A stretch of DNA of 51,652 nt from Thermoproteota archaeon. GTDB lineage: Archaea; Korarchaeota; Korarchaeia; Korarchaeales; Korarchaeaceae. The notes under the pieces are model-generated. The model was not told where the DNA came from, made no database searches, and saw only the letters and a list, made by a program, of their open reading frames with translations. Position 1 is the stretch's first letter. The number at the start of each line of letters is the position of its first letter. Made by a program: the position numbers and the translations under genes. Shown here piece after piece: positions 10,585-51,652 of this stretch. The stretch is taken from positions 1-51,652 of the forward strand of contig JAOZFH010000002.1 in NCBI GenBank assembly GCA_027491415.1. Direction: 5' to 3'.

Positions 10585-11652
10585 TCATGGGGTCATAACC
10601 GGAACAGAGCCAAATCTCCCCAAGTCCACCCAGTCGCCGGGTCTTGCGTCGGCCAGGATCAGTCTCAACCCCAAGGGCCTCCCTTTGATGGCCGCAGCCG
10701 CGAGGACATCCATCATCAGCTTAGCCAAGGTAGGGGGGTTGAAGAGCGGAAGCGCCACCATGTCAACTCCGGCCACGCACACCGTTGACAGGCCGACTAG
10801 ATCCCTCAGTCTGAGTTTGCCACGCGAGGCAAGCTCCTTAAGTCGGTCGTCCTCGGCAACGGGCAGCATGACCTCCGAGAAGCCAACCGTCGGTGCGTAG
10901 TCTCTCAGAGAGGAGAGAATGGCGTTCAGTCGCCAGATCGCCCAGTAGGTGCCTGGCCCGCCGAACTCCTCTTCCGTGAGGGACTCTATCAGGGCCGCGA
11001 CGGACTCCTCCATCCACGGCGACACGGACGGGTCTACGCCGAGGAACTCTATGCCAGAGGACATGGCTATTCTCCTGCCAGCCTCCGTGGCCCAATTCAC
11101 GATTTCGATAATCCTCTGTTTCAGTTGCCTCCAGGATCCGGTCTGCGCGGCCACCCTGAGATCTCCCGCGTAGAGCAGGCTGAGGGAAATGCCCTCCCTC
11201 TCTGAAGCTGTGGACGGGAAGTAGGGCGTCTCGACGAGTCCCCCCAGCCCAAAGGCAATCCTCGTGAGGGCTTCGGGTCCATGGTCTTCGAACACGGAGT
11301 GTAGAAGCCTGGCGAGCTTAGTCGCGAACTCGGGTCGCGGTCGCCTGACCTCGATCCCCACGAAGATCGCGTCGGAGACGGAAAGGAGAGCCGGCGCCCC
11401 GCCAGCCTGATCCAAGCTTAGGGGGATGGAGAGGTACTCCGCACCTGCTTCAGTCGCGCGGTCGTAGACCTCGGCGACGAGGTCCGGGCTCCGCGCCCAA
11501 GGCCCCCTGGGGAGGACGATCCTCTTGGTCCAGGCCAGGTCGCCCGAGGCCGAAAAGGCGGGCTCGGATTTGGCTAGGATGAGGTCCGAGATAGTGTCGA
11601 TTTTCTCAGGATCGACGGGCGGTGCGTGGAAGGCGAGAGCCCTGATCCTCAA
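10585..11652 (-). CDS. DUF711 family protein
   Basis: TPYFP, GVDPSVSPW, VGFSEVMLPVAEDDRL, VCVAGVDMVALP and KGRPLGLRL motifs. Confidence 0.8.
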   Translation of the reverse strand: MRIRALAFHAPPVDPEKIDTISDLILAKSEPAFSASGDLAWTKRIVLPRGPWARSPDLVAEVYDRATEAGAEYLSIPLSLDQAGGAPALLSVSDAIFVGIEVRRPRPEFATKLARLLHSVFEDHGPEALTRIAFGLGGLVETPYFPSTASEREGISLSLLYAGDLRVAAQTGSWRQLKQRIIEIVNWATEAGRRIAMSSGIEFLGVDPSVSPWMEESVAALIESLTEEEFGGPGTYWAIWRLNAILSSLRDYAPTVGFSEVMLPVAEDDRLKELASRGKLRLRDLVGLSTVCVAGVDMVALPLFNPPTLAKLMMDVLAAAAIKGRPLGLRLILADARPGDWVDLGRFGSVPVMTP

Positions 11653-11988
11653 GGCTCAACACCTCGTCATGGGCCCGCCGGATCACGAAAAATCTCTGCT
11701 GCGTGCGTCCAGAACGCGCATGGTCTCGCGTGCCCCCTGGTGGGAACCGGGTCGATAGAGATGTGGCCGAGACGCCCAATGCCTCTTCCCAGGGACGATC
11801 AACCTCGCGCTCGAAGAGAGGAACTTAGTGGTCGTGAAGTCCCGCAGCGATCCCGCCTTGGTTCGGCTCAGAGCTGCGCGGTTGCGGGAGGTCTGAGTCA
11901 GGGAGATCTATGCGCGTCGACAAGGCGGCTGCTTGATTTTTTGGGCCCTCCCTCGCACGACGGTTTGCCCCTCGCGCTTCTCTGAGTG

Positions 11989-12083
11989 CACCGATATATC
12001 CGCCGAATTCTTGGATCAAGAATTGCCCGCCGCGTATGAAGGAACAGACGCGTTCTGCGAGGAGAGGTGCGGATATATCGGTG
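11989..12083. repeat. Perfect 15-bp inverted repeat with a 65-bp spacer that contains a nested 8-bp inverted repeat
   Basis: CACCGATATATCCGC (11989-12003) and GCGGATATATCGGTG (12069-12083); inner AATTCTTG-GAT-CAAGAATT (12006-12024). Confidence 0.9.
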
Positions 12084-12568
12084 AACCCAATAGGAGGAGA
12101 TCTGCGACTCTTTGGAGGCACAGACGGCGGGGAACTTGAGTCTTCTGGAAGGAGTGTCAGAATTACGGGTGGGGCGCGCTGGCAAGACTGTAAAAGGCGA
12201 ACTTCTGCCGGAGGGTACATACTACCCTGTCAGATGAGGAAAGCTCTCCTAGCCTGGCGTGCCCGCCCCAGGCCTCACCGATTGGTGTGGCGAATCGGCG
12301 TGTCCCGCAGACGCAGGGAACATCCCAGAGAGTGGAGCTAGAGGTAAGAGATAACTTGGGAAGCCCTCGAGGGCCCTCGAGGCCCCCTTTTGGCACAGGG
12401 CCATTCTCATCCGTCATAAGGGGTCCCCCAAGGGGCCGAAGTTGGGGACTACCTTGACCATAGAGGAGAGCTACGGGGGACCAAGACCGGCCGCTGCGGT
12501 CACGCTCTTCCTATTTAATCAGGGGTGCCACAACTCCCCCGAGGTGATCGAGAGTTCGGGTTAAGGTA

Positions 12569-14065
12569 ATGCCCGAGAGCTTTCCGGCAGGCCGTAGGAT
12601 AATACTCCTCTCGGCTCAGGATGCCAGGGAGGCAGGCCTGAGACCGTACGACAGGGTTAGAGTTAGCCTGGACAGCAAGAGCGCGACTGCCCTGCTCTCC
12701 GTGGTCGAGGGGATGATCCCACCCGGAGAGGCCGTACTATCGCTGGAACTCAGGGGGGCCCTCGAGGTTCAGTCTGGAGAAGAGGTCACTCTCAGCCTAG
12801 CTGGCAGGCCCAAATCCTTCGACGCCATACGGAAGAAGATGCGGGGGGAGGAGCTGACCCCCGAGGAGATAAGGGCCATAGTGTTTGACGCGGCGAACTA
12901 CGAGATAGGCGAGCTGGAGATAGCCGCCTTCCTGCTGGCTCAGGAGTTCAAGGGAATGAACATGAACGAGATAGTGGCCCTCACGAAGGCCATGGTGGAG
13001 GCGGGCTCCACGGTGGACTTCGGAAGGCCCGTCTACGAGAAGCACTCCATAGGCGGCGTGCCCGGGAACAAGGTCAGCCTCCTAATAGTCCCGATAGCTG
13101 CGTCGCTGGGAGTCTTCATCCCCAAGACCAGCAGCAGGGCGATAACCAGCCCGGCTGGCACCGCTGACACGATGGAGGTCTTAGCCCCGGTGGAGTTCGA
13201 CCTTGAGGAGTACAAGGAGGTGGCCCTCAAGGCAGGAGGGTGCATAGTCTGGGGTGGAAAGCTCGACCTGGCGCCGGTTGACGACATATTCATCAGGATA
13301 GAGCACCCCCTCGGCATAGACCCGAGGAGTCAGATGCTCGCCAGCATATTCTCCAAGAAGCTGGCCGTCGGCATACAGGGGCTCGTCATGGACATACCAA
13401 CGGGGAAGGGGGCCAAGGTTGAGGATCTGAAGGATGCGGAGGCCCTCGCGAGCCAGTTCATCGAGCTGGGCAGGAGGTTTGACGTCAGAGTTCAGTGCGG
13501 CATAACCTACGGGGGACAGCCCGTGGGCCACGCCGTCGGCCCCGCGCTGGAGGCCAGAGAGGCCCTCGAGGCCCTCATGGGCGGGGGGCCGGCCAGCCTG
13601 ATAGAGAAGTCGACTAGCCTGGCCGGCCTGCTGCTGGAGCTCTCCGGCGTGACTACCAAGGGGGCCGGCCAGGATGCCGCGAAGGAGGCCCTAAGGACGG
13701 GAAGGGCGCTTGATAAGATGAGGGAGATAATCGAGGCCCAGGGCGGGGATCCCAAGGTCGAGCCCGGGGACATCCCCGTCGGGGAGTACAGGGTGGAGCT
13801 TAGGGCGCCAGCCGACGGCTACGTTACCGACGTGGACAACGCGTCGATCGCGACGATAGCCAGGCTCGCCGGAGCCCCAAGCGAGAAGGGCGCCGGCGTG
13901 CTCCTCCACGCCAAGCAGGGGTACAAGGTGAAGAAGGGGGATGTGCTCCTCGAGATCTTTGCCGAGAGGGAGTCTAAGCTTACAGAAGCCTATGAGGCTG
14001 CCGTGAGGTTGAGGCCAGTAACCGTCGAGGGCATGCTCCTCCGGAGGGTCCCGGAGTACCTGTGA
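12569..14065 (+). CDS. AMP phosphorylase (archaeal thymidine phosphorylase family)
   Basis: KHSIGGVPGNK, PKTSSRAITSPAGTADTME, DIPTGKGAK, QPVGHAVGPALEA, plus the archaeal N-terminal extension. Confidence 0.93.
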   Translation: MPESFPAGRRIILLSAQDAREAGLRPYDRVRVSLDSKSATALLSVVEGMIPPGEAVLSLELRGALEVQSGEEVTLSLAGRPKSFDAIRKKMRGEELTPEEIRAIVFDAANYEIGELEIAAFLLAQEFKGMNMNEIVALTKAMVEAGSTVDFGRPVYEKHSIGGVPGNKVSLLIVPIAASLGVFIPKTSSRAITSPAGTADTMEVLAPVEFDLEEYKEVALKAGGCIVWGGKLDLAPVDDIFIRIEHPLGIDPRSQMLASIFSKKLAVGIQGLVMDIPTGKGAKVEDLKDAEALASQFIELGRRFDVRVQCGITYGGQPVGHAVGPALEAREALEALMGGGPASLIEKSTSLAGLLLELSGVTTKGAGQDAAKEALRTGRALDKMREIIEAQGGDPKVEPGDIPVGEYRVELRAPADGYVTDVDNASIATIARLAGAPSEKGAGVLLHAKQGYKVKKGDVLLEIFAERESKLTEAYEAAVRLRPVTVEGMLLRRVPEYL

Positions 14066-42715: not shown

Positions 42716-43621
42716 TTGTTGAGGGTCCTTCGGCCCTTCGACCCTTGGAAGAGCCCGCTGTGCACCTGTCCGCCTCAGCTCACGCTCAACCCCTACACCG
42801 GCTGCGGTCACAGATGCGCCTACTGCTACATCACGGCATACGTGAGGGACGCCTTCAACCCCAGGCCCAAGAGAGACCTCATCGCCCGGCTGATCTCCGA
42901 CATTAAGCGCCTGAGGCCCGGCACCCTCGTCTCCATGAGCCTCAGCTCCGACCCCTACACCCCCCCAGAGGGGGAGCTGGGGCTGACGGGGCGGGCCCTA
43001 GACCTCTTGCTCAGGGCCGGCGCTAGGGTCCTCGTGGTGACCAAGTCAAGCCTGGTGGTCAGGGACGCCGACGTTCTCTCCCGTGGGCGAGCGGCGGTCA
43101 TGCTCACCGTTACGACGCCCAACGAGGACGTGGCGTCTAGGCTGGAGCCCGGGGCCCCCCCGCCGGGCGACAGGTTCGAGGCCATGGCACACCTTACGGC
43201 GACCGGAGTCCCGGTGGGGCTCAGGCTGGACCCGATCATACCGGGCGTTAACGACTCCCCCGAGGATGTCAGGGAGATCCTGAGGTCGGCGAGGAGCGCC
43301 GGCGCCTCTCACGTGGTCTCTTCCACCTACAAGGCCAGGCCCGGCAGCATGAAGCGCCTCCTTGAGGCCCTACCCGAGGCCGCAGAGGCGCTGAGATCGG
43401 CATACCGTGGAGGAGAGAGGGTTGGGGGTTACGTGTACCTCCCGAGGTCCGAGAGGGTTCGGCTGATGGAGATCGTGAGGAGGGAGGCCCTCGAGCTCGG
43501 GATGACCTTCGCCACCTGCAGAGAGGGGCTCCACCACATGAACACCCCCGGGGTCGCCTGCGACGGGTCCCACCTTACACTGGCCGCGCGGCGGCCGGGC
43601 GTGGCGGAAAAGGGATATTAG
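42716..43621 (+). CDS. SPL-like (Rv2578c-type) radical SAM protein
   Basis: NPYTGCGHRCAYCY CxxxCxxC, SSDPY, VTKS, LEPGAP...R, DPIIPGVND. Confidence 0.88.
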   Translation: MLRVLRPFDPWKSPLCTCPPQLTLNPYTGCGHRCAYCYITAYVRDAFNPRPKRDLIARLISDIKRLRPGTLVSMSLSSDPYTPPEGELGLTGRALDLLLRAGARVLVVTKSSLVVRDADVLSRGRAAVMLTVTTPNEDVASRLEPGAPPPGDRFEAMAHLTATGVPVGLRLDPIIPGVNDSPEDVREILRSARSAGASHVVSSTYKARPGSMKRLLEALPEAAEALRSAYRGGERVGGYVYLPRSERVRLMEIVRREALELGMTFATCREGLHHMNTPGVACDGSHLTLAARRPGVAEKGY

Positions 43622-43642
43622 GAAGACTGTAGAGCCGACCAC

Positions 43643-44290
43643 TTGCCGGGTGCGTCTGGGTTGGGGCTGCACGCGTTCTTCGTTTTTGACGCGTTCACCG
43701 AGTTCTTCAGCGCGCTTACAGCCCTCTTCGTGGCTTACTACTCCCTGAAGGCCTACAAGATCCTGGACGACTCCCGGATGATCTCCCTCAACCTGGGGTT
43801 CTCCGTGCTGGGCGTAGGCATGTTGATTCACGGGGCCGTCAAGGTCAGGATAGCCTTGGCCGTCCTGTCGGGAGTGGCCGTCCCGCCAGCCAGGAGGCTT
43901 CCCCTGGTCAGGCTAGGTTACACCATCGCCTTTGCCACCGAGCTGGCCGCCTACGCTCTGATATTCCTCTCGACGATGAGGAGGCCCCCGTCGACGGAGG
44001 CCGCCCTCGTCCCGCCCCTTGTGACCCCCCTGATCGAGTACGACTTCCGCTCCGAGGGCCTGCTGGCCGCTCTGGCCTTGTTGATCGCGATCAAGGCTGG
44101 GATCAGCTATGCCCAGGGAGATTCTAGGCTCGCGGGGTTGGTGTCGCTGGGCTTCGCGCTGCTGGCTGCTGCCCACCTGCTATTGGTCTTCGGCGGACCT
44201 CTGAAGCTGGTCGCTGCGGACGTGACGAGGCTGCTCGGGTTCGCGTGCCTGCTCTGGATGGTAATCAGGGTGAGCCGGGTGAGAGCATGA
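43643..44290 (+). CDS. Integral membrane protein of unknown function
   Basis: Roughly six hydrophobic segments; coupled to the downstream regulator by an ATGA overlap. Confidence 0.65.
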   Translation: MPGASGLGLHAFFVFDAFTEFFSALTALFVAYYSLKAYKILDDSRMISLNLGFSVLGVGMLIHGAVKVRIALAVLSGVAVPPARRLPLVRLGYTIAFATELAAYALIFLSTMRRPPSTEAALVPPLVTPLIEYDFRSEGLLAALALLIAIKAGISYAQGDSRLAGLVSLGFALLAAAHLLLVFGGPLKLVAADVTRLLGFACLLWMVIRVSRVRA

Positions 44291-44574
44291 CGGCCAGGCA
44301 GAGGTACAGGTCCAAGATGAGGATCTGCTACGACATGCTGAGGGTCATACAGGAGGAGGGCGGAGAGGCAGGCCCCACCCGGATTCTCTACGGCGCGAAC
44401 CTCTCCTACGAGAGGCTCAAGAGGTACCTCGCCGAGCTGATCGAGAAGGGCCTCATTGAGGAGGTGGAGAGAGACGGAAAGAGGATATACAGGCTGACGG
44501 ACAGCGGGCGGATGTTCATCATCCACTTCAGGAAGATGACGGAGTTCGCGAAGGCCTTCGGAATGATCCTATGA
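44287..44574 (+). CDS. Archaeal winged-HTH transcriptional regulator (COG3432-like)
   Basis: RSKMRICYDML, TRILYGANLSY..LKRYL..L...GLI, YRLTDSG. Confidence 0.85.
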   Translation: MTARQRYRSKMRICYDMLRVIQEEGGEAGPTRILYGANLSYERLKRYLAELIEKGLIEEVERDGKRIYRLTDSGRMFIIHFRKMTEFAKAFGMIL

Positions 44575-44639
44575 TCTCGTCGCTAGGCCTCCCGACCGAC
44601 CGCCCAGGTCGCCAGCGAGAGGCGCGCCGCGGTGCGCTG

Positions 44640-45400
44640 GTCCGAACTCCACGTGGAGGCCAGGGGTACGTCCTGTATCGCGCCCTAGCCTCGCCGGCCC
44701 TGATCACGTGGTACGCGCTCCCCCTCTACCTGATGAAGATGGACTACGGCGTCTTGGAGGTCGGGGCCACGTCCACGGCCGCGACCTGTTGAGCGTTCCG
44801 TTCACCGTTCTGCTGGGCAGGAGGTTCACGAGGGTCGACCTGAGGCTTGGGCTGGCCGCCATAGACCTGATGGAGGCGGTCTCCCTCGCCCTCTTCTCAA
44901 TGGCGTACGGTCCGCTGGCCCCCCTGCTCGTTCTGGCGTGGCAGCTGGTGGACGAGGCATCCAGCGTGCTCTATTCCCTCTATCCTGCCTGCGAGAGGAT
45001 CGTGTACCCGGAGGAGAAGTTGAGGGAGGCCATGCTGTGGCACATGGCGGGGCCCGAGCTGTCGGTGGTCCTCACCTACCCGGCGCTCGGCTACGTCCTG
45101 GGGCGGGTCTGCGGTGCCCCCTCCCGCCTAAGACAGGCCTTCGCGGCCTTTGCAGCTACCAGCTGCTCCTGATACCCTAAACCCTCTTGGCGCTCAGGCC
45201 CGTGGTCGTAGAGGGTAAGAGAGATGGCCGGGGGGGAGGGGGAAGGGGAGGGTGAGGGGGAGCGTGGGGATCTGTGGAGGAGGTATGGAGTCTACGTGGT
45301 CCCCGACATCCTCTTCGTCCTGAGCCGAGGCCTGGCCCGAGCTTGGCCATGGTCTACCTTGATATGGAGAGTTTTGCGCGCGTGACGGTCATAACTTGAC
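44640..45400 (+). pseudogene. Degenerate MFS transporter fragment (approximate boundaries)
   Basis: Hydrophobic MFS-like segments spread over several frames (WYALPLYL..GVLEVG; LLSVPFTVLLG...YPACERIVYP), with stops at 44792, 45172 and 45180; incomplete. Confidence 0.6.
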
Positions 45401-45673
45401 TGAGGAGGGTTCATCAACTCTGGAGAGCGTGAGCGGCTGGTCGACTGGCGTGCGGGGGCCTCGAAGGTTGCTTCCTGTGTAAATCCCTGCCCTACCCACC
45501 TTTTCGCAATTCAGTGGACCCATGTAGAAGCCTTCGCTGTACAGAGGCCTCGCCCGTTACCAAAGGCAATTTTAGTCTGAAAAGCCCTTGCCGGACTGTG
45601 TAGGGCGGTCGGGACTCGCTCACCATCCGCCAGTAAAACTTCTCCGCAGCCAGAGAGCCCCGGAGACTCGGAA

Positions 45674-45916
45674 GTGCAAACTTTTCACCTGACCGAGGAG
45701 CAGAGGGCAATATTCAGGATAGCGTCTTCGCTGTCCAGGGTAAACGACGCCATAGAGGTGCTGGAGGACTCCCCGGACGAGCTGCTGGCCGCCAGCGAGG
45801 TCCTCAACCTCCCCGAACTCCAAGCCTACGCCTACACCATCCGCCACGTCGTCGGCATACTCTACGCTCTGCGCGAGAGGCTGGACTCGCTGATCACGGG
45901 AGGCGATGGAGAGTGA
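45674..45916 (+). CDS. Hypothetical helical protein (element)
   Basis: 80-aa ORF coupled to the next gene by a GTGA overlap. Confidence 0.65.
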   Translation: MQTFHLTEEQRAIFRIASSLSRVNDAIEVLEDSPDELLAASEVLNLPELQAYAYTIRHVVGILYALRERLDSLITGGDGE

Positions 45917-46227
45917 GGGCAAGGAGGTACCTCCGCATTCGAATCGGCGGCAGGGAACCCCTGGACGGGGGCGACTTCTGGGGAGTGGACATCTACCGAG
46001 AGGGCAAGAGGCGGTACTGGCTGGTGTACTGGGAGGTCGCAGCTGAGAGGATGCTGGCCGAGGACGAGAGCGGCTGGCTGGAGACTTGGTTCGGCCCGTT
46101 CGTCAGCACCAGCGAGGCCATGAGGTGGTGGGACAGCGTCCCCGAGTACGCTGGCAGGAAGCTCCTGAGCGAGGCCCCTCCACTCCCGAGGGAGGGGAGG
46201 CCCCCGCTGCCCGCCCTGGGGAGGTGA
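45913..46227 (+). CDS. Hypothetical Trp-rich protein (element)
   Basis: 104-aa ORF with GGAGG RBS and overlapping start. Confidence 0.65.
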   Translation: MRARRYLRIRIGGREPLDGGDFWGVDIYREGKRRYWLVYWEVAAERMLAEDESGWLETWFGPFVSTSEAMRWWDSVPEYAGRKLLSEAPPLPREGRPPLPALGR

Positions 46228-46231
46228 CCGC

Positions 46232-46498
46232 ATGACCTGCGACAGGGACAGGCTCACCGCGGCCCTCGCGAGCGTCTTGGTCGCGCTGACGACGGCCTCC
46301 TGCCTCACGTGGGACAGCGCGGAGAGGATGCTGGAGGACTGGCTCAATGAGCTGAGGAGGTGCGGCCTGCTGTCGACGCTCGACAGCCACTACGTGATGG
46401 CCTTCGCTCGAGAGGCCCTGCAGAACAGGGACCTAGCCGACACCTGGCCGGAGGTGCTCGCCAAGCTCCTCGAGGAGAGCGAGGGTGATGAGGAATGA
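46232..46498 (+). CDS. Hypothetical protein (element)
   Basis: 88-aa ORF with GGAGGTGA RBS. Confidence 0.65.
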   Translation: MTCDRDRLTAALASVLVALTTASCLTWDSAERMLEDWLNELRRCGLLSTLDSHYVMAFAREALQNRDLADTWPEVLAKLLEESEGDEE

Positions 46499-46836
46499 CC
46501 GCCAGGGATGACCTCATCGCGGAACTCACATCCAAGGCCGTGCTGGTCCCCGAGGACTGGACGGACAGGGTGATAGCGCTGCTGGACTTCACCTCAGAGC
46601 TGACCAGCGTGGTCGAGATCGAGGTGAGGTGGGGCTCCTGGCGCATCTTCGCCGACGAGCGCACCCTCTGGGTCGTCCGAGACGACGACCTCAGGGCGGT
46701 CTGGGCCGTAGACCTGGACTCCTTGGCAGGCGCCGACGAGCTGCAGGACTGGATAGACCACCCGGACCAGTTCCTCAGCCAGTGGACCGAGCTGATCGTC
46801 AAACTGATCGGTAGGGAGGCGATGGATGGTGGCTGA
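46495..46836 (+). CDS. Hypothetical acidic protein (element)
   Basis: 113-aa ORF with ATGA overlap and GGTGA RBS. Confidence 0.65.
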   Translation: MTARDDLIAELTSKAVLVPEDWTDRVIALLDFTSELTSVVEIEVRWGSWRIFADERTLWVVRDDDLRAVWAVDLDSLAGADELQDWIDHPDQFLSQWTELIVKLIGREAMDGG

Positions 46837-47281
46837 CTTCACGAGGGTCGAGCTGGTCCTCTACCTCGACCGCTACGCGTACCCCAAGCACGGGATGCTC
46901 TGGATAGCCAAGGTCCCGGTGAATGGCAGGAGGTGCATCCGCTCCCTCCGCAGGGGGCAGAAGGCGGCGGTTCCCCTGATCTCCTGGGCCGCCGACGGCC
47001 TCAGGAGACTCCTACACAACCTGGTCAGGCGCGGGGGAGCGCGGTTCGTCGACCACCACTGGCACGGCAGGAGGAGCGTGGCGGTGGTGTTCGACGTGCC
47101 CCCCTCCGTCTCACGCGCGCTCGACAGACTCGCCGAGCTGAGGTTCCGCTACATGGGGCTGGATGGGGAGGACAGGATCGAGGCGTGGAGGGCGTACGAC
47201 CGCTTCGTCCGCTCGCTGCTGGACTGCCAGAGCCAGCGAGACTTCGAGGAGTTGCTCGGCCTCGAGGTGACTGCCCGATGA
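46826..47281 (+). CDS. Hypothetical basic protein (element)
   Basis: 151-aa ORF with GGAGG RBS. Confidence 0.65.
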   Translation: MVADFTRVELVLYLDRYAYPKHGMLWIAKVPVNGRRCIRSLRRGQKAAVPLISWAADGLRRLLHNLVRRGGARFVDHHWHGRRSVAVVFDVPPSVSRALDRLAELRFRYMGLDGEDRIEAWRAYDRFVRSLLDCQSQRDFEELLGLEVTAR

Positions 47282-47478
47282 GGTGGGGCGGCTCCTACAC
47301 GTACTCGCGCGTCCGCGTTCAGATCCTGCACTGCCCCGTCTGCGGCGCTCAGTACCGCCACTATAACATCACGAAGCGGGAGCTTCTGCGCGAGGCCAAG
47401 GAGGAGCCAGAGCTGATGATCTGCAGGCGCTGCGGGGCCAGGCTCGAATGGGCTGGAGCGAGGTGGGAGCGTGTCTGA
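47278..47478 (+). CDS. Small zinc-ribbon protein (element)
   Basis: 66 aa from the ATG at 47278; CPVCG...CRRCG; GAGGTGA RBS. Confidence 0.7.
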   Translation: MRWGGSYTYSRVRVQILHCPVCGAQYRHYNITKRELLREAKEEPELMICRRCGARLEWAGARWERV

Positions 47479-47728
47479 GGAAGAAGTGCCAAACGAGTGG
47501 AACCTGATGCAGCCCCCCGTCCCGGAGGACGCCGACGCCTGCGTCGACCAGTACGAGCCGGAGGATCTCTCGGAGCAGATCTGGGCGATTAACGAGGCCG
47601 CCGAGGAGAGGAACATCCACCCAGTCTGCGCAATGTGCGTCCATGACTGCAAGAAACCCTACTCCTGGTGGAGCTTCCAGATGCCGCCGTGGATGTTCTG
47701 CGAGGACTGGGAGGGAGATGAGGAGTGA
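47471..47728 (+). CDS. Small acidic Cys-rich protein (element)
   Basis: 85 aa with HPVCAMCVHDCKK...FCEDW. Confidence 0.65.
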   Translation: MSEEEVPNEWNLMQPPVPEDADACVDQYEPEDLSEQIWAINEAAEERNIHPVCAMCVHDCKKPYSWWSFQMPPWMFCEDWEGDEE

Positions 47729-48075
47729 GGTCGGCCAAGCCCATCCCTCCCCCCTCCTTCTCTCCCCCTCCTAGGCGCAGGGTCGGCCCGCCGAGCCTCG
47801 CCGAGCGCCTCTCTTGGCTCGCCAGGGAACTCGGCGACCGCTTCCCCAGCCTGGAGGTCAGACCCTACCTGGACAGGCTCGCGGTCAGGGACCCGGATCG
47901 AGGCGTTGCGGCCATACTCGCGCTCCGCGATGGGGCCTGGGTCGTGATCGACGGCTCGGGGAGGCGCAGCTTCGACGACCCCTACTCCGCCATCAGGGAC
48001 CTCGTCACCAGGCTCGGCCTTCCCATCGACCCGCTGTGGCTGTTCGAGGCCATGTTCCCGGGGGTGGTGAGGTAG
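47725..48075 (+). CDS. Hypothetical protein (element)
   Basis: 116-aa ORF with GTGA overlap. Confidence 0.6.
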   Translation: MRSAKPIPPPSFSPPPRRRVGPPSLAERLSWLARELGDRFPSLEVRPYLDRLAVRDPDRGVAAILALRDGAWVVIDGSGRRSFDDPYSAIRDLVTRLGLPIDPLWLFEAMFPGVVR

Positions 48076-49134
48076 GTGCCAGAGATTCCCAGCGCCTACT
48101 CGAGTCTCAAGCGCGCGGCGCGGGTCTATGAAAACTTGGCTCGGTCCCCGAGATTCCTTAACTACACCACCATCATAGACCTCGCCCTCGAGTCCCCCCG
48201 ACCCATCACTGCGAAGGCCATCCAGAGGGAGTTGGACTTCAGGTTCGTCCAGCTGGCCTACTACTACGCCAATAGGCTCGTGGAGCTTGGCCTCCTCAAG
48301 AAGATAAGGCGCGGGGGCAGGGTCTACTACGCACCCACGGACCTCGCCAGGGACTTCGTTAGGCTTGCCGAATTAAAGGCCTCGGCGGGACCGAGGGGGA
48401 CCGAGCCCTGGCTCCGTCGCAGGCCGCGGACCAATTTCCTCCGCCCACGGACCGAGGGGGACCGAGAGGTTGGGGTCAGGACGAGACTTCACGCCGCCAA
48501 GGCCAAGTTCCGCATAATCCAGCGTGGCTCCGATCTCCCCTTCCCCAGGAAGGTCACGAGGATGAGGAACTGGACCCAGGTGACCTACTTCGTCCCCTTC
48601 GAGTCTGGCCGGGTGTCGGTGCAGGTCAACACGCGCCAGGTCGTGGTGGATGTGCCCAGACCCGACAGGCCCCTGCCGCCGGAGGGGTTCAAGGAGTGGG
48701 TCCTGCGCGTGGTGGAGCACGTCCGGGGAGTGCTCGCCGACTGCGGCTGGGAGCTTGAGTTCGTGGGGACCACGGCCGAGGTCGGCGTGAAGGACCCGGT
48801 AGCCAGCCTCGTCGCCAAGGGGGGCATGGTGATCAGGGACACAGTCGGCGCCATGGACGACTCCCCGGGAGGGGGAGAGGGCGAGTTCGACATCTACGAC
48901 GATCCGCTGAACCCCGAGCGGGTCAAGAGGTACATGCTGACCGTCACCGAGATCCTGCCCCGCGGGTATCAGGAGATACTGCACAGGCTGGAGGGGCTGG
49001 AGAAGAGGGTCGACGTGGTCGTAGCGAGCATGAACAAGATCGCGGGGATCTTCGAGAGGCTGCTGCCGCCAGCACAGTCTCAGAGGCAGGGAGGGACGCC
49101 GCAGCTGCCCGAGTACCCCGACTTCGGCTACTGA
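48076..49134 (+). CDS. Winged-HTH protein with a C-terminal domain; candidate replication initiator
   Basis: N-terminal wHTH (ITAKAIQREL..LAYYYANRLVELGLLKK..RVYYAPT), disordered linker with DNA repeats, C-terminal domain (RLH...DDSPG.GEGE) and a coiled-coil tail. Confidence 0.6.
   Translation: MPEIPSAYSSLKRAARVYENLARSPRFLNYTTIIDLALESPRPITAKAIQRELDFRFVQLAYYYANRLVELGLLKKIRRGGRVYYAPTDLARDFVRLAELKASAGPRGTEPWLRRRPRTNFLRPRTEGDREVGVRTRLHAAKAKFRIIQRGSDLPFPRKVTRMRNWTQVTYFVPFESGRVSVQVNTRQVVVDVPRPDRPLPPEGFKEWVLRVVEHVRGVLADCGWELEFVGTTAEVGVKDPVASLVAKGGMVIRDTVGAMDDSPGGGEGEFDIYDDPLNPERVKRYMLTVTEILPRGYQEILHRLEGLEKRVDVVVASMNKIAGIFERLLPPAQSQRQGGTPQLPEYPDFGY
48388..48466 (+). repeat. Two identical 18-bp direct repeats, each made of two GGACCGAG units (iteron-like)
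   Basis: GGACCGAGGGGGACCGAG at 48388-48405 and 48449-48466; an inverted copy CTCGGTCC lies at 48140-48147. Confidence 0.9.
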
Positions 49135-49135
49135 G

Positions 49136-49444
49136 GTGGTGGCCATGGTGGCCATGGTCCGCAGGAACCCGAGGGGGTATGATGACATCATAGAGATCCT
49201 GCTTCAGCTCGGCATCAGGAGCCGCGAGCGAAGGAGAAAGATGGCGTACATGATCGAGTACCTCAGTCAGATTCACGGCAACATCCTCTCGAAGGACTTC
49301 GAGGCAATCGCTGACTTGGCGCTGAGGCAGGGCTACGACCTAAAGTCCGTGGCTGACCTACTTCGGGCCGTCGCAGCCCTGAGATGTGGCAGGCTTCCAC
49401 GAAGGGTCTCCGTGGACTTCGGGAAGGTGAGGGTCCAGTGGTAG
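49136..49444 (+). CDS. Hypothetical protein (element)
   Basis: About 100-aa helical ORF directly after the Rep candidate. Confidence 0.6.
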   Translation: MVAMVAMVRRNPRGYDDIIEILLQLGIRSRERRRKMAYMIEYLSQIHGNILSKDFEAIADLALRQGYDLKSVADLLRAVAALRCGRLPRRVSVDFGKVRVQW

Positions 49445-49719
49445 CTGCCTTCACACCCCTGACCCAGTACCTCGACGATCCTAGAGAGGTATTCAAGCTC
49501 AGAGAGGAGCAGGAGAGGCGCAAGACCGTAAAGGAGAAGATCCTAGAGATACTCCTCGACGGGAAGCCGCACAGCAATAGGGACTTGGTGAAGGTCACAC
49601 ACAGGTTTAGCGCCAGAATCAAGGACCTCCGAGATGAGGGCTGGATCATTCTCTCTTGGCGCGACGAGGAGGACCCCGCCACCTGGTGGTACCAGCTAGT
49701 GGGGAGGGATTCAAAGTGA
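49438..49719 (+). CDS. Small winged-HTH DNA-binding protein of phage type (element)
   Basis: KEKILEILLDGKPHSNRDL...FSARIKDLRDEGWII...WYQL; GTG start at 49438 with GGTGAGG RBS. Confidence 0.75.
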   Translation: MVAAFTPLTQYLDDPREVFKLREEQERRKTVKEKILEILLDGKPHSNRDLVKVTHRFSARIKDLRDEGWIILSWRDEEDPATWWYQLVGRDSK

Positions 49720-50015
49720 ACTACGTCGTAGTCTTCGAGACCGTCAGGACAGAGGAGGAGATCGCTGAGATCTGCGCCCGGAACTTCCCCGACGCCAGGT
49801 GCCTCCGCTGTCCGATGTTCAACACTCCCCAGTGCCCAGCAGAGTTCGTCAACAGGTACTGCCGCACCTGCAGGCACTCTAGGCCCGTCAGCTTCGTCCA
49901 CCCTCTGTTCTCCTCCTCTGAGGACTGCCTATGGTGCGTCAAGAGGGGCAGGGTCGTCAGGCCAGATGACATTTGCCTAGGCTGGCAGAGGAGGGAGGTG
50001 ATGGTCCGTGGTTAG
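49716..50015 (+). CDS. Cys-rich metal-binding protein (element)
   Basis: CLRC...C...CRTCRH...CLWC...C; GTGA overlap start. Confidence 0.7.
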   Translation: MNYVVVFETVRTEEEIAEICARNFPDARCLRCPMFNTPQCPAEFVNRYCRTCRHSRPVSFVHPLFSSSEDCLWCVKRGRVVRPDDICLGWQRREVMVRG

Positions 50016-50796
50016 GATAACCCCGAGCAGGATCGAGTACTTGGCCCACGGCCTGAACTTCGCCAGCTTCTGCACATCGTCCTGCGTCTACTGCTACATG
50101 AACCGCTTCCGCAGGGTGAATCTCGGGCGCGGGAAGCCAGTCGACGAGGACTTAGAGGAACTCGCCAGGCAGCTGGAAACCTTCACGCCCAAGGGGGACA
50201 TCATGATGTCCACGTCCAACGACCCCTTCACGGCTGGCTACTCCCTGGCCAACAGGATTCTCTCCCTTGTGGTCTCAAAGCTCGACGATCTGCGCTCGAG
50301 GGCTGGCGCGGACTTCAACCTCCGGGTTCTGAGCAAGAAGGGGGTCTGGAGGAACCCCATCACCCGCGAGCCCCTCCCCAACCACTCCCTCCTTCTCTTC
50401 GGCCAGACCGTGACCACGCTGAACGACTCCGTGCGCCAGGTCCTGGAGCCCGGCGCCGCGCCAGTCGACGGGAGGATAGAGGCCCTTCGGCAGGCTAGGC
50501 AGGCTGGCTTCCGGGTCTGGCTCAGCGTCGAGCCCGTCTTCGAGGGCATGGACCTCCTGAGGTTGTGCGAGTTGGTGGAGCCTGAGGAGGTCTGGGTCGG
50601 GAAGCTGAACCACTACTCGAGCCAGTTCGCCCTACCGCCTGAGGAGATCCACAGGCAGGTGGAGGAGGCTAGGGCCTCCGGATTCGTGGTGAGGGAGAAG
50701 CGGGAACTCAGGGAGGCATTAAAGATCGAGGAGGAGCGAAAACTCGTCGGTCTAGAGACGTACCTAGTGGAGGCTGGAGCCCAATGCCGGTCCTGA
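50008..50796 (+). CDS. SPL-like radical SAM protein (element-encoded)
   Basis: CTSSCVYC CxxxCxxC, STSNDPF, TVTTL..LEPGAAP..RIEAL, WLSVEP, VGKLNH. Confidence 0.82.
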   Translation: MVRITPSRIEYLAHGLNFASFCTSSCVYCYMNRFRRVNLGRGKPVDEDLEELARQLETFTPKGDIMMSTSNDPFTAGYSLANRILSLVVSKLDDLRSRAGADFNLRVLSKKGVWRNPITREPLPNHSLLLFGQTVTTLNDSVRQVLEPGAAPVDGRIEALRQARQAGFRVWLSVEPVFEGMDLLRLCELVEPEEVWVGKLNHYSSQFALPPEEIHRQVEEARASGFVVREKRELREALKIEEERKLVGLETYLVEAGAQCRS

Positions 50797-51236
50797 GCGT
50801 CAAGGTCTCCGACGACTACGCCAAGAGGGTCAGGGAGTTCGCCAAGTCCAGGGGTATATCCGTCGCCAAGCTGATCAGAGAGGCCCTCGACTCCTATATG
50901 GCTGAGCAGGCCAACTCCCACGAGTCTACCCAGGTAGACCTGACGCAGAGGAGCGATCCCGTTCTCTTGCTCCTCAGCTACGCTTTGGCTCAGCTGGCGA
51001 GTGCGAGAGGGGTAGACCTCCCCAGGGTTCCCGTGGTCGACCCATCGACCCTGCTGGGGCGGGCCGCAGTCGGGGAGGCTCCTTCTTTCGCCTCAGGTGG
51101 GAAGCCTAAGGCGCCTCGGGAGCCCCTTCTGCCCCAGCCTGATCCTGGCCAGGTGTCCATGGACCTCATCGAGGAGTTCGCCCGGGACAACCCCTGGGCA
51201 GAGGTCCTATCAAGGAAAGGAGGCGGGAAGAGTTGA
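50784..51236 (+). CDS. Ribbon-helix-helix (CopG-like) DNA-binding protein with a C-terminal extension
   Basis: VLSVKVSDDYAKRVREFAKSRGISVAKLIREALDSY. Confidence 0.82.
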   Translation: MPVLSVKVSDDYAKRVREFAKSRGISVAKLIREALDSYMAEQANSHESTQVDLTQRSDPVLLLLSYALAQLASARGVDLPRVPVVDPSTLLGRAAVGEAPSFASGGKPKAPREPLLPQPDPGQVSMDLIEEFARDNPWAEVLSRKGGGKS

Positions 51237-51652
51237 CTGTTACGCGCGTAACAGATCTGGAGGCCTTCAGATCTTGGCTGTACGCCAGCAACCTCAGGCC
51301 CGGGACGGTCAAGAAGTACCTAATGTGGGTAAAGCGCTGGCTAGAGAGTGGCAAATCTGCGGTGGACTTCTTAGCGAGTATAGAGAACCCACGCACCAGG
51401 CAGGTGGCGAGGTCGGCGATAACTAGGTACGCTAGATACGCCAGCCTGCGCGTGGAACTTCCATCTGTCAGAACCCCGAAGAGACGCCTCCCACGCTATC
51501 TAGAACCCGATGAGGTACAGAAGCTGATTGCTGCGGCGGACAGCGACCTCCAGAGGCTCGCTATGGGACTTATGTACTACGCTGGCCTGCGGGTGTCGGA
51601 GGCCTGCTCACTACGGTGGGATGATGTGGACTTGGAGACCTCGGCCCTGAGG
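51233..51652 (+). CDS. Tyrosine recombinase/integrase (XerA-like), truncated at the 3' end by the window
   Basis: Manual translation from TTG 51233: ...TVKKY...KRRLPRYLEPDEVQKLI...LMYYAGLRVSEACSLRWDDVDL, containing the box I catalytic Arg. Not in the ORF track because no stop falls inside the window. Confidence 0.9.
   Translation, partial: MTVTRVTDLEAFRSWLYASNLRPGTVKKYLMWVKRWLESGKSAVDFLASIENPRTRQVARSAITRYARYASLRVELPSVRTPKRRLPRYLEPDEVQKLIAAADSDLQRLAMGLMYYAGLRVSEACSLRWDDVDLETSALR
51237..51274. repeat. Two adjacent palindromes at the integrase start
   Basis: CTGTTACGCGCGTAACAG (51237-51254, perfect) and AGATCTGGAGGCCTTCAGATCT (51253-51274, one G-T pair). Confidence 0.85.

Follow-up and report, generated by a model that had tools for sequence, protein, structure and literature searches.

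An undescribed virus-borne family of archaeal winged-helix proteins with candidate cis-acting motifs inside their own genes

A gene that contains the same 18 nucleotides twice, in two different reading frames, raises the question of whether the DNA inside the gene is itself a site and, if so, which protein reads it and with what output. The gene considered here encodes a 352-residue protein, P0001, and lies in a window of 51,652 nucleotides, the whole stretch analysed, which is one complete contig (C32; JAOZFH010000002.1) of the 63 in a 1.78-Mb genome bin (1,783,303 bases, 96% complete) of a Thermoproteota archaeon of the Korarchaeaceae, from a small phylum of 43 species genomes. A preliminary description had proposed that P0001 is a replication initiator whose iteron-like origin sits within its own gene. 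We find that P0001 belongs to an undescribed DNA-binding protein family of archaeal viruses and integrated elements, and the definition of this virus-borne family, with its conserved partner and its fixed place in proviruses, is the lasting result of the analysis. The in-gene repeat is real and unique in its genome, and we tentatively favour the idea that it is the protein's own site.

The repeat array and the protein encoded around it

The window contains two exact copies of the 18-mer GGACCGAGGGGGACCGAG and no more, spaced 61 bp apart, and each copy consists of two GGACCGAG units 10 bp apart (Table 1), as the preliminary description had it. The partial unit GGACCAAT between the two copies and the inverted GGACCGAG upstream of them were likewise found where it had placed them, and the inverted copy is part of a longer inverted match, exact over 12 nt (48138-48149 against 48396-48407). 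Counted from the first unit, the starts fall at 0, 10, 40, 61 and 71 bp, with the palindromic copy ~250 bp upstream, where it adjoins the least GC-rich 40 bp of the gene (48140-48179, 50% GC, ~200 bp from the direct repeats). The direct repeats themselves occupy the most GC-rich part of the gene (65-80% GC in 40-bp windows; 57-80% across 48360-48480). The two 18-mers are read in different frames, as G-P-R-G-T-E and as R-T-E-G-D-R-E; no stop codon closes any of the three frames across the repeat, and between them the units use all three.

What sets the array apart is its clustering. The genome-wide count that had been suggested as a check gave no enrichment of GGACCGAG (131 copies against ~125 expected from base composition), and there is none in the window (7 against 7.08 expected from shuffles); nevertheless, this is the sole site in the genome with at least three copies inside 150 bp, and it holds the sole two pairs that lie at most 12 bp apart. 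The shorter motif GGACC alone is not enriched in the surrounding element either (5.0 per kb, against 3.8 in the genome). When the genome was scanned for exact direct repeats of at least 18 nt within 200 bp, 97 rows were obtained, mostly CRISPR repeats, and the spacing in the non-CRISPR rows was divisible by 3, as in protein repeats, apart from two tRNA-like pairs and the GGACCGAGGGGGACCGAG pair. Shuffles of the gene with 400 bp on each side never produced a close direct repeat of 18 nt (0/60). Because the clustering is unique in the genome and the spacing of this pair, which is neither CRISPR nor tRNA-like, is indivisible by 3, we conclude that the repeat is real and is neither a protein repeat nor a product of chance. 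An ancient 61-bp tandem duplication was considered and rejected, the 43 bp that follow each 18-mer being unlike one another.

The claim that the repeat must be kept at the DNA level needs one correction. The repeat is a DNA-level one, its copies being read in different frames, but unit 5 encodes D-R-E, a peptide with which the central domain of distant relatives also begins, so that a protein constraint acts on this unit besides a DNA constraint. The arginine codons in the units (CGG, CGG and CGA, in a genome that uses AGG for 57%) are suggestive at most. A deletion between the 18-mers, made in silico, shifts the frame and would leave a hypothetical product of ~126 residues comprising the winged helix alone.

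The AlphaFold model of P0001, built from a 12-sequence alignment (mean pLDDT 66), contains two folded parts separated by a disordered linker, and the direct repeats lie in the part of the gene that encodes this linker, in agreement with the preliminary description. The N-terminal winged helix that it had recognized is also real: beyond its well-modelled fold, the domain superposes by VIA on RosR, MarR, PadR, TubR and AspA chains with Z 10-12 (rmsd 1.7-3.8 Å over 84-96 residues), AspA is the best sequence-profile match in the PDB (E 8e-4), and Pfam winged-helix families match 6-9 of the 12 members (MarR_2 in 9, best E 2.4e-6), with weaker matches to Sso10a- and Csa3-type HTH models. The C-terminal part had been left without a named family, and so it stays, since neither this part nor the alpha/beta domain within it matches anything in Pfam, PHROGs, NCBIfam or PADLOC; the ESM Atlas likewise gave no usable match for residues 132-300 of P0001 or 92-260 of P0010. 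The fold comparison that had been proposed for it returned, by Foldseek, only weak TBP-like matches, which are not replication folds. TBP chains are the best PDB matches of the whole model (E 1.8e-3 to 2e-2, probability ~1.0), and TBP-like viral proteins are among its BFVD fold matches; the superposition is poor (TM 0.42 by target, rmsd ~9 Å, roughly one TBP half) and carries no sequence signal, and the VIA-align match lists are filled by the winged helix alone. The modelled central domain may be called weakly TBP-like at most.

Outside the winged helix, the residues R137, N165, W166, V182, L227, D261, S263, E270 and P295 are invariant in alignments A3 and A7. The C-terminal tail, which follows a variable spacer, is identical in P0001 and its closest relative P0002, and most other relatives also end in an aromatic and then a hydrophobic residue. 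No tyrosine outside the winged helix is invariant in these alignments, and His139 (of R-L-H) is replaced by Asp in the relatives at L061 and L039, which excludes a rolling-circle nicking enzyme; an HUH or Rep_trans initiator was rejected on the same grounds, as the invariant catalytic Tyr and the His-hydrophobic-His metal motif are both missing. A predicted complex of the C-terminal tail with host PCNA scored 0.02 against a mark of 0.32, which is not evidence either way.

Table 1. Coordinates in the window of the P0001 gene, its repeat units, the encoded domains and the block in which it lies
Feature	Coordinates	Strand	Basis or remark
Block of ~15 co-directional, tightly packed, mostly small genes	45674..51652	+	ORF list; reaches contig end
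Gene of the 352-aa family protein (P0001)	48076..49134	+	GTG start; frame confirmed by homologues
N-terminal tail and winged helix-turn-helix, residues 1-103	48076..48384	+	pLDDT 80-93; helix domain from residue 7
Inverted GGACCGAG copy (48140-48147), also a 5-3-5 palindrome, CTCGG TCC CCGAG	48138..48152	-	in the part coding for the N-terminal tail
Arg/Pro-rich disordered linker, residues 104-134	48385..48477	+	pLDDT <50 over residues 103-136
First 18-mer: GGACCGAG units 1 (48388-48395) and 2 (48398-48405)	48388..48405	+	exact repeat search
Partial unit GGACCAAT	48428..48435	+	sequence search
Second 18-mer: GGACCGAG units 4 (48449-48456) and 5 (48459-48466)	48449..48466	+	exact repeat search
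Alpha/beta domain, residues 135-250, five or six strands and one long helix	48478..48825	+	pLDDT mostly 75-90
Acidic Gly-rich loop, conserved, residues 251-279	48826..48912	+	alignments A3 and A7; low model confidence
Long helix (280-336), likely coiled coil, then short aromatic-ended tail; residues 280-352	48913..49131	+	model
Tyrosine recombinase, first 140 residues, cut by contig end	51233..51652	+	Phage_integrase, E 1e-11

Relatives, a conserved partner gene and a constant position in proviruses

Only ~12 relatives of P0001 were returned when protein collections were searched by words and by full HMMER. A six-frame profile search of 401 sampled genomes of the class Bathyarchaeia, to which the family loci L010 and L011 belong, extended this to 47 matches (E 1e-20 or better), spread over 30 genomes with at most 5 in any one; ~150 further genomes of the set match the winged helix only. 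Directly downstream of the family gene and on the same strand lies a partner gene of ~160-199 codons (~185 aa), present in 17 of 30 short loci and in all 10 longer loci, which were drawn from the same set, so that the two counts are not independent. The partner protein has a basic N-terminal end, a coiled coil and a C-terminal winged helix.

The surroundings of this pair are those of a tailed virus. A scaffold or cement protein and an HK97-type major head protein are encoded 4-5 kb beyond the partner, and in genome G408 the region further encodes a tail tube protein, a large terminase and an integrase. The order is the same, on one strand, in six of six loci from five genomes, with 15-21 kb between the family gene and the large terminase gene (TerL) and then 16-33 kb to the tyrosine integrase, which places the family gene at the end of a ~35-kb tailed provirus, opposite the integrase. 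The family is thus viral or mobile. Among predicted viral structures, its best match is A0A1S5Y2Y3 (E 6e-10), which comes from an uncultured archaeal virus and is full-length, and broken or cut copies are found in three of the first five loci with DNA. No match to P0001 or P0010 was obtained by tblastn in collections of phage and plasmid records, and longer, fused forms of the family were not found, which is weak evidence. Literature searches on Hadarchaeota proviruses and on archaeal-plasmid iterons gave nothing on the family; provirus gene tables in supplementary files may bear on it.

Several of these loci carry additional genes near the module. In the Bathyarchaeia provirus at L054, a CBASS-type pair (Cap15 receptor and SMODS nucleotidyltransferase; 11093-12587, minus strand) lies between the family module and the head genes, and in the G408 provirus a type I restriction-modification block is inserted in a similar way. 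At L002 (genome G009, contig C3), an ORF that looks RelE/ParE-like by eye (3-191) lies just upstream of a decayed, N-terminally cut family copy. Radical SAM or DUF5131 genes stand near the family gene at three unrelated loci (window 50008-50796; L011 9259-9923; L010 3976-6514), a proximity that may be coincidence.

In-gene motifs among relatives and the readings of the repeat

Relatives of P0001 carry a motif of a different sequence inside their genes. The 5′ coding part of 13 of the 26 other family genes with DNA contains a 12-bp palindrome of two GTCAAA half-sites, accompanied in the same 13 genes by one or two extra direct GTCAAA copies that fall in different reading frames; a degraded form is present at five more loci. 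In a codon alignment of 19 genes, nowhere in the gene is synonymous diversity lower than in the GTCAAA stretch (0.17, with a mean of 0.46), a value reached by 8 of 2000 permutations. The low diversity persists within amino-acid classes, and the motif's three Lys columns have scores of 0.1, 0 and 0, compared with a mean of 0.39 in the 9 other Lys columns. The palindromic copy in the P0001 gene lies within ~10 codons of this stretch in the alignment. On the evidence of these sequences, the comparison suggests that family members carry short cis-acting motifs within those parts of their own genes that encode disordered peptides. In the intact homologue at L010, from a single-cell genome, an exact 13-nt inverted pair (9987-9999/10102-10114) flanks the first 40 codons, and a looser direct copy lies 190 bp upstream; this pattern was derived from the same sites on which its statistics would be calculated, which makes them circular.

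The linker of P0001 has a narrower distribution, being an insertion confined to P0001, P0002 and P0003 in alignment A3. P0002 is 83% identical to P0001, and P0003 34%. Between P0001 and P0002, 9 of 31 linker residues differ, compared with 8 of 103 in the winged-helix part, and the recognition helix is identical. In the best case that its peptide sequence permits, P0002 could keep units 1, 4 and 5 in full (8/8 bases each) and the inverted copy in 12/12 bases, since the residues encoded by these units and by the inverted copy are unchanged.

The analysis establishes the repeat, its uniqueness in the genome, the layout of the domains, the viral and mobile context of the family and the comparable in-gene motif of relatives; that P0001 binds the units, forms a complex on them and starts replication is what we infer. 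P0001 would be a sequence-specific DNA-binding protein of a virus-derived integrated element, with the GGACCGAG units (four exact direct copies, one partial and one palindromic) as its binding sites and the winged helix of the same protein as their obvious reader. Because the spacing of the unit starts puts them on roughly one face of the helix, winged helices may bind the units head to tail, and the coiled coil may join the bound proteins into a higher-order complex. Since the site sits in a part of the gene that codes for a disordered, freely evolving peptide, site and binder would be inherited as one unit. The output would likely be the start of replication of the excised element, as for lambda O at ori-lambda. 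We tentatively place this reading first, a self-recognized site that is most likely a replication origin together with its initiator, because of the lambda-like placement of the site, because no other candidate initiator is seen in the element and because the gene has no room for a promoter of its own upstream. In descending order of probability it is followed by a repeat without function, a transcription regulator and a packaging-recognition protein.

The analogy with lambda O has clear limits. Lambda iterons are ~19 bp long with inner symmetry, whereas the units in the P0001 gene are 8 bp long, direct and GC-rich with no AT-rich tract beside them, and the repeats are not retained at that place across the P0001 family; P0001 and lambda O also have no sequence relation. 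What the two have in common is a layout in which a variable linker connects a DNA-binding N-terminal domain to a second domain, with the repeated sites in the middle part of the gene, as described for lambda O (PMC7466680). In P0001 this placement takes the form of four exact units and one partial unit within the linker-coding part (48388-48466). According to the same source, lambda iterons adjoin an AT-rich tract, the number of repeats varies among close relatives and alters the length of the O peptide, and lambdoid phages with near-identical O proteins can have 4 or 6 iterons (PMC7466680).

A number of results weigh against the origin reading. On the side of the protein, no ATPase, primase or nuclease motifs are seen in P0001, and initiator families (Phage_rep_O, Rep_3 and the like) gave no match at Pfam E <=1 for any of the 12 members and none in PHROGs or NCBIfam. 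The winged-helix proteins of archaeal viruses are mostly transcription regulators. On the side of the site, 40-bp GC windows revealed no AT-rich tract beside the repeats. The check, proposed in the preliminary description, of whether homologues keep linker repeats went partly against the reading: 9 of the 12 aligned members lack the linker altogether, none of the 26 relatives has a comparable repeat there, and the close direct repeats in those 26 loci reach at most 13 nt, compared with 18 in the window gene. Even P0002 cannot encode unit 2 (at most 4/8 bases) or the partial unit (at most 5/8), and these losses, deduced from its peptide, weaken the idea of an essential five-unit array; given that iteron number varies among lambdoid phages, the loss of units in P0002 is not decisive and does not by itself refute the reading. 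Nor does the GTCAAA motif speak with one voice, as its palindrome encodes a conserved peptide and its conservation is therefore partly at the protein level, the stretch of low synonymous diversity belongs to the 5′ end of the gene, a region in which such diversity is lowered by translation start and mRNA structure as well, and one direct copy has been lost by synonymous change in 6 of the 13 loci. The anatomy set out in the preliminary description, and its analogy to lambda O, were right; it had also held that homologues without linker repeats, or a C-terminal fold unrelated to replication, would speak against an initiator, and both were found in part.

The first alternative, which we regard as possible and rank directly after the origin reading, is that the repeat has no function and arose by recent copying in a fast-evolving linker, through short-patch repair or template switching seeded by a shared 9-mer, and has not yet decayed. 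The linker is disordered and is a subgroup-specific insertion, the exact identity of the copies suits a recent event, and the residue differences from P0002 map to unit 2, to the partial unit and to the spacer of the second 18-mer. The 43 bp that separate the 18-mers are unlike the 43 bp that come after the second copy, and GGACCGAG has an ordinary frequency in the genome, both of which also favour this alternative. However, CRISPR and tRNA-like repeats aside, the genome has no other out-of-frame close repeat of this size, and the copies are non-adjacent, helically phased and in one case inverted, a layout that simple slippage does not yield. Also against it, the genes of relatives have a comparable design built on a different motif, and synonymous change is lowered there.

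Somewhat less likely is a second alternative, in which P0001 is a transcription regulator that switches early or late genes of the element or provirus on or off and uses the in-gene sites for autoregulation or as a roadblock, with no replication start involved. Its winged helix is nearest to MarR, PadR, RosR and ArsR regulators (Z 10-12), to which the weaker Sso10a- and Csa3-type matches may be added, and the fold of residues ~10-105 and the weak profile matches agree in this. In archaeal viruses, proteins of this type most often act as transcription regulators; in the proviruses the family gene and its winged-helix partner stand directly upstream of the head block, a frequent position for late-gene activators, and the palindrome of the relatives lies near the 5′ end of the gene. 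MarR, PadR and RosR regulators are dimers of 100-150 aa that bind palindromic operators in promoters, whereas P0001, at two to three times the size of MarR or PadR, has ~250 extra residues (alpha/beta domain, acidic loop and coiled coil), and conservation extends to these added domains, to the acidic loop and to the tail. Its sites lie inside the gene, with direct units 310-390 bp from the start, an unusual place for an operator, and the abutment of the gene start on the stop codon of the preceding ORF leaves no room for a promoter. Among winged-helix proteins of similar shape, TubR and AspA (Z 10-10.8) bind arrays of sites and build higher-order complexes; these differ from P0001 in being ~90-100 aa long without further domains, and no partner NTPase (TubZ or ParA) for a centromere-binding role was found among the scanned element ORFs.

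A third alternative, a small-terminase-like packaging-recognition protein with the in-gene repeats as a pac-like site, is improbable: although lambda Nu1-like small terminases have the same order of parts (a DNA-binding helix-turn-helix, an oligomerizing helix and a short C-terminal tail), pac sites often lie inside the small-terminase gene and the family gene stands just upstream of the head genes in proviruses, it is 15-21 kb from TerL rather than adjacent to it in all six provirus loci, no small-terminase family matches in Pfam or PHROGs, a length of ~300-350 aa exceeds the usual size, and the genome of the window has no match to TerL and no relative of the head protein, the assembled part of the element being without structural genes. 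Under this reading, the small element in the window could be a satellite that diverts the capsids of a helper virus.

Returning to the origin reading, a broader form of it would make the whole family one of origin-binding initiators, built of a winged helix, a TBP-like saddle and a coiled coil and having their origin in the disordered-region coding parts of their own genes. The lambda O-type arrangement would then have arisen independently in Archaea and would be common to the tailed proviruses of the 30 of 401 Bathyarchaeia-class genomes, proviruses that so far have no recognized replication gene. We consider this generalization doubtful, a shade below the regulator in probability.

The integrated element and the meaning of the family

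The block of genes that contains the P0001 gene ends in a tyrosine recombinase, which bears out the proposal that the gene is part of a mobile element, and on its gene content we read the block as an integrated one. The P0001 gene is the largest of its ~15 ORFs, and its GTG start abuts the stop codon of an upstream ORF of 116 aa. Most ORFs of the block have weak or no family matches; besides the recombinase, the element encodes a radical SAM protein and a ribbon-helix-helix protein (50784-51236), and family scans of the ~15 ORFs found no match to known replication, packaging or capsid proteins. The genes to the left are host-like (a methyltransferase, a radical SAM protein and an HTH_45 protein). 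The recombinase fragment matches a XerA-type model at E 1.1e-15, which falls below the cut-off of that model, and the source genome holds three tyrosine recombinase genes of such kind, this contig-end fragment among them. In the same genome, 96% complete as binned, there is neither a TerL match nor a relative of the Bathyarchaeia head protein. The window contains no tRNA gene, and Rfam gave one chance-level match only on 43000-51652.

A related element fragment in genome G003, of the same genus, has homologues of both genes upstream of the P0001 gene together with a putative Cas4-like nuclease; it breaks off 17 nt past the upstream gene and is thus uninformative on the repeat. The nuclease-like ORF (L015, on contig C132, 662-1333, minus strand) encodes 223 aa with a C-terminal Cys cluster, is Cas4/RecB-like by eye, and occupies the position that a 151-aa ORF and a zinc-ribbon ORF have in the contig studied here.

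Further features were noted in and around the element. A perfect 18-nt palindrome at 51237-51254, at the junction of the ribbon-helix-helix gene and the recombinase start, could be an operator or part of the attachment region. At the left edge of the element, a 500-bp gap (45172-45674) holds a G-rich run of repeated GGGGA/GGGAG (45225-45270), and the lowest-GC 60-bp windows of the element follow just after it (45340-45400). CRISPR arrays with a 37-nt repeat are present on contigs C1, C5, C46, C62 and C63 of the source genome, mostly at contig ends, and none of the genome's own spacers matches the element. The ribbon-helix-helix protein and a 354-aa host protein have a C-terminal peptide of ~17 residues in common, encoded by 38 nt at 89% identity (window 51171-51208; contig C30 70360-70397, within L013 6327-7391, minus strand), which may be a docking peptide. 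The gene of the host protein sits between those of RNA polymerase subunit D and ribosomal protein S11, and it also has an exact 20-mer in common with the coiled-coil part of the P0001 gene (48996-49015).

Most archaeal viruses and small integrated elements have no recognizable genes for replication or for packaging recognition. The present work defines a conserved two-gene module, made up of the family protein and its ~185-aa winged-helix partner, that has a fixed place in tailed proviruses. Of 401 genomes sampled from a major uncultured archaeal class, 30 contain these proviruses, and the module also occurs in a smaller, integrase-bearing element of another phylum. Even if the repeat in the P0001 gene should prove neutral, the family, its partner and the provirus context would still be useful annotation. 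If the in-gene motifs are the proteins' own sites, they would offer a simple and testable way to learn how the DNA of these viruses is marked to be replicated, packaged or regulated, and the P0001 gene would be an archaeal example of a cis site lying inside the gene of the protein that binds it.

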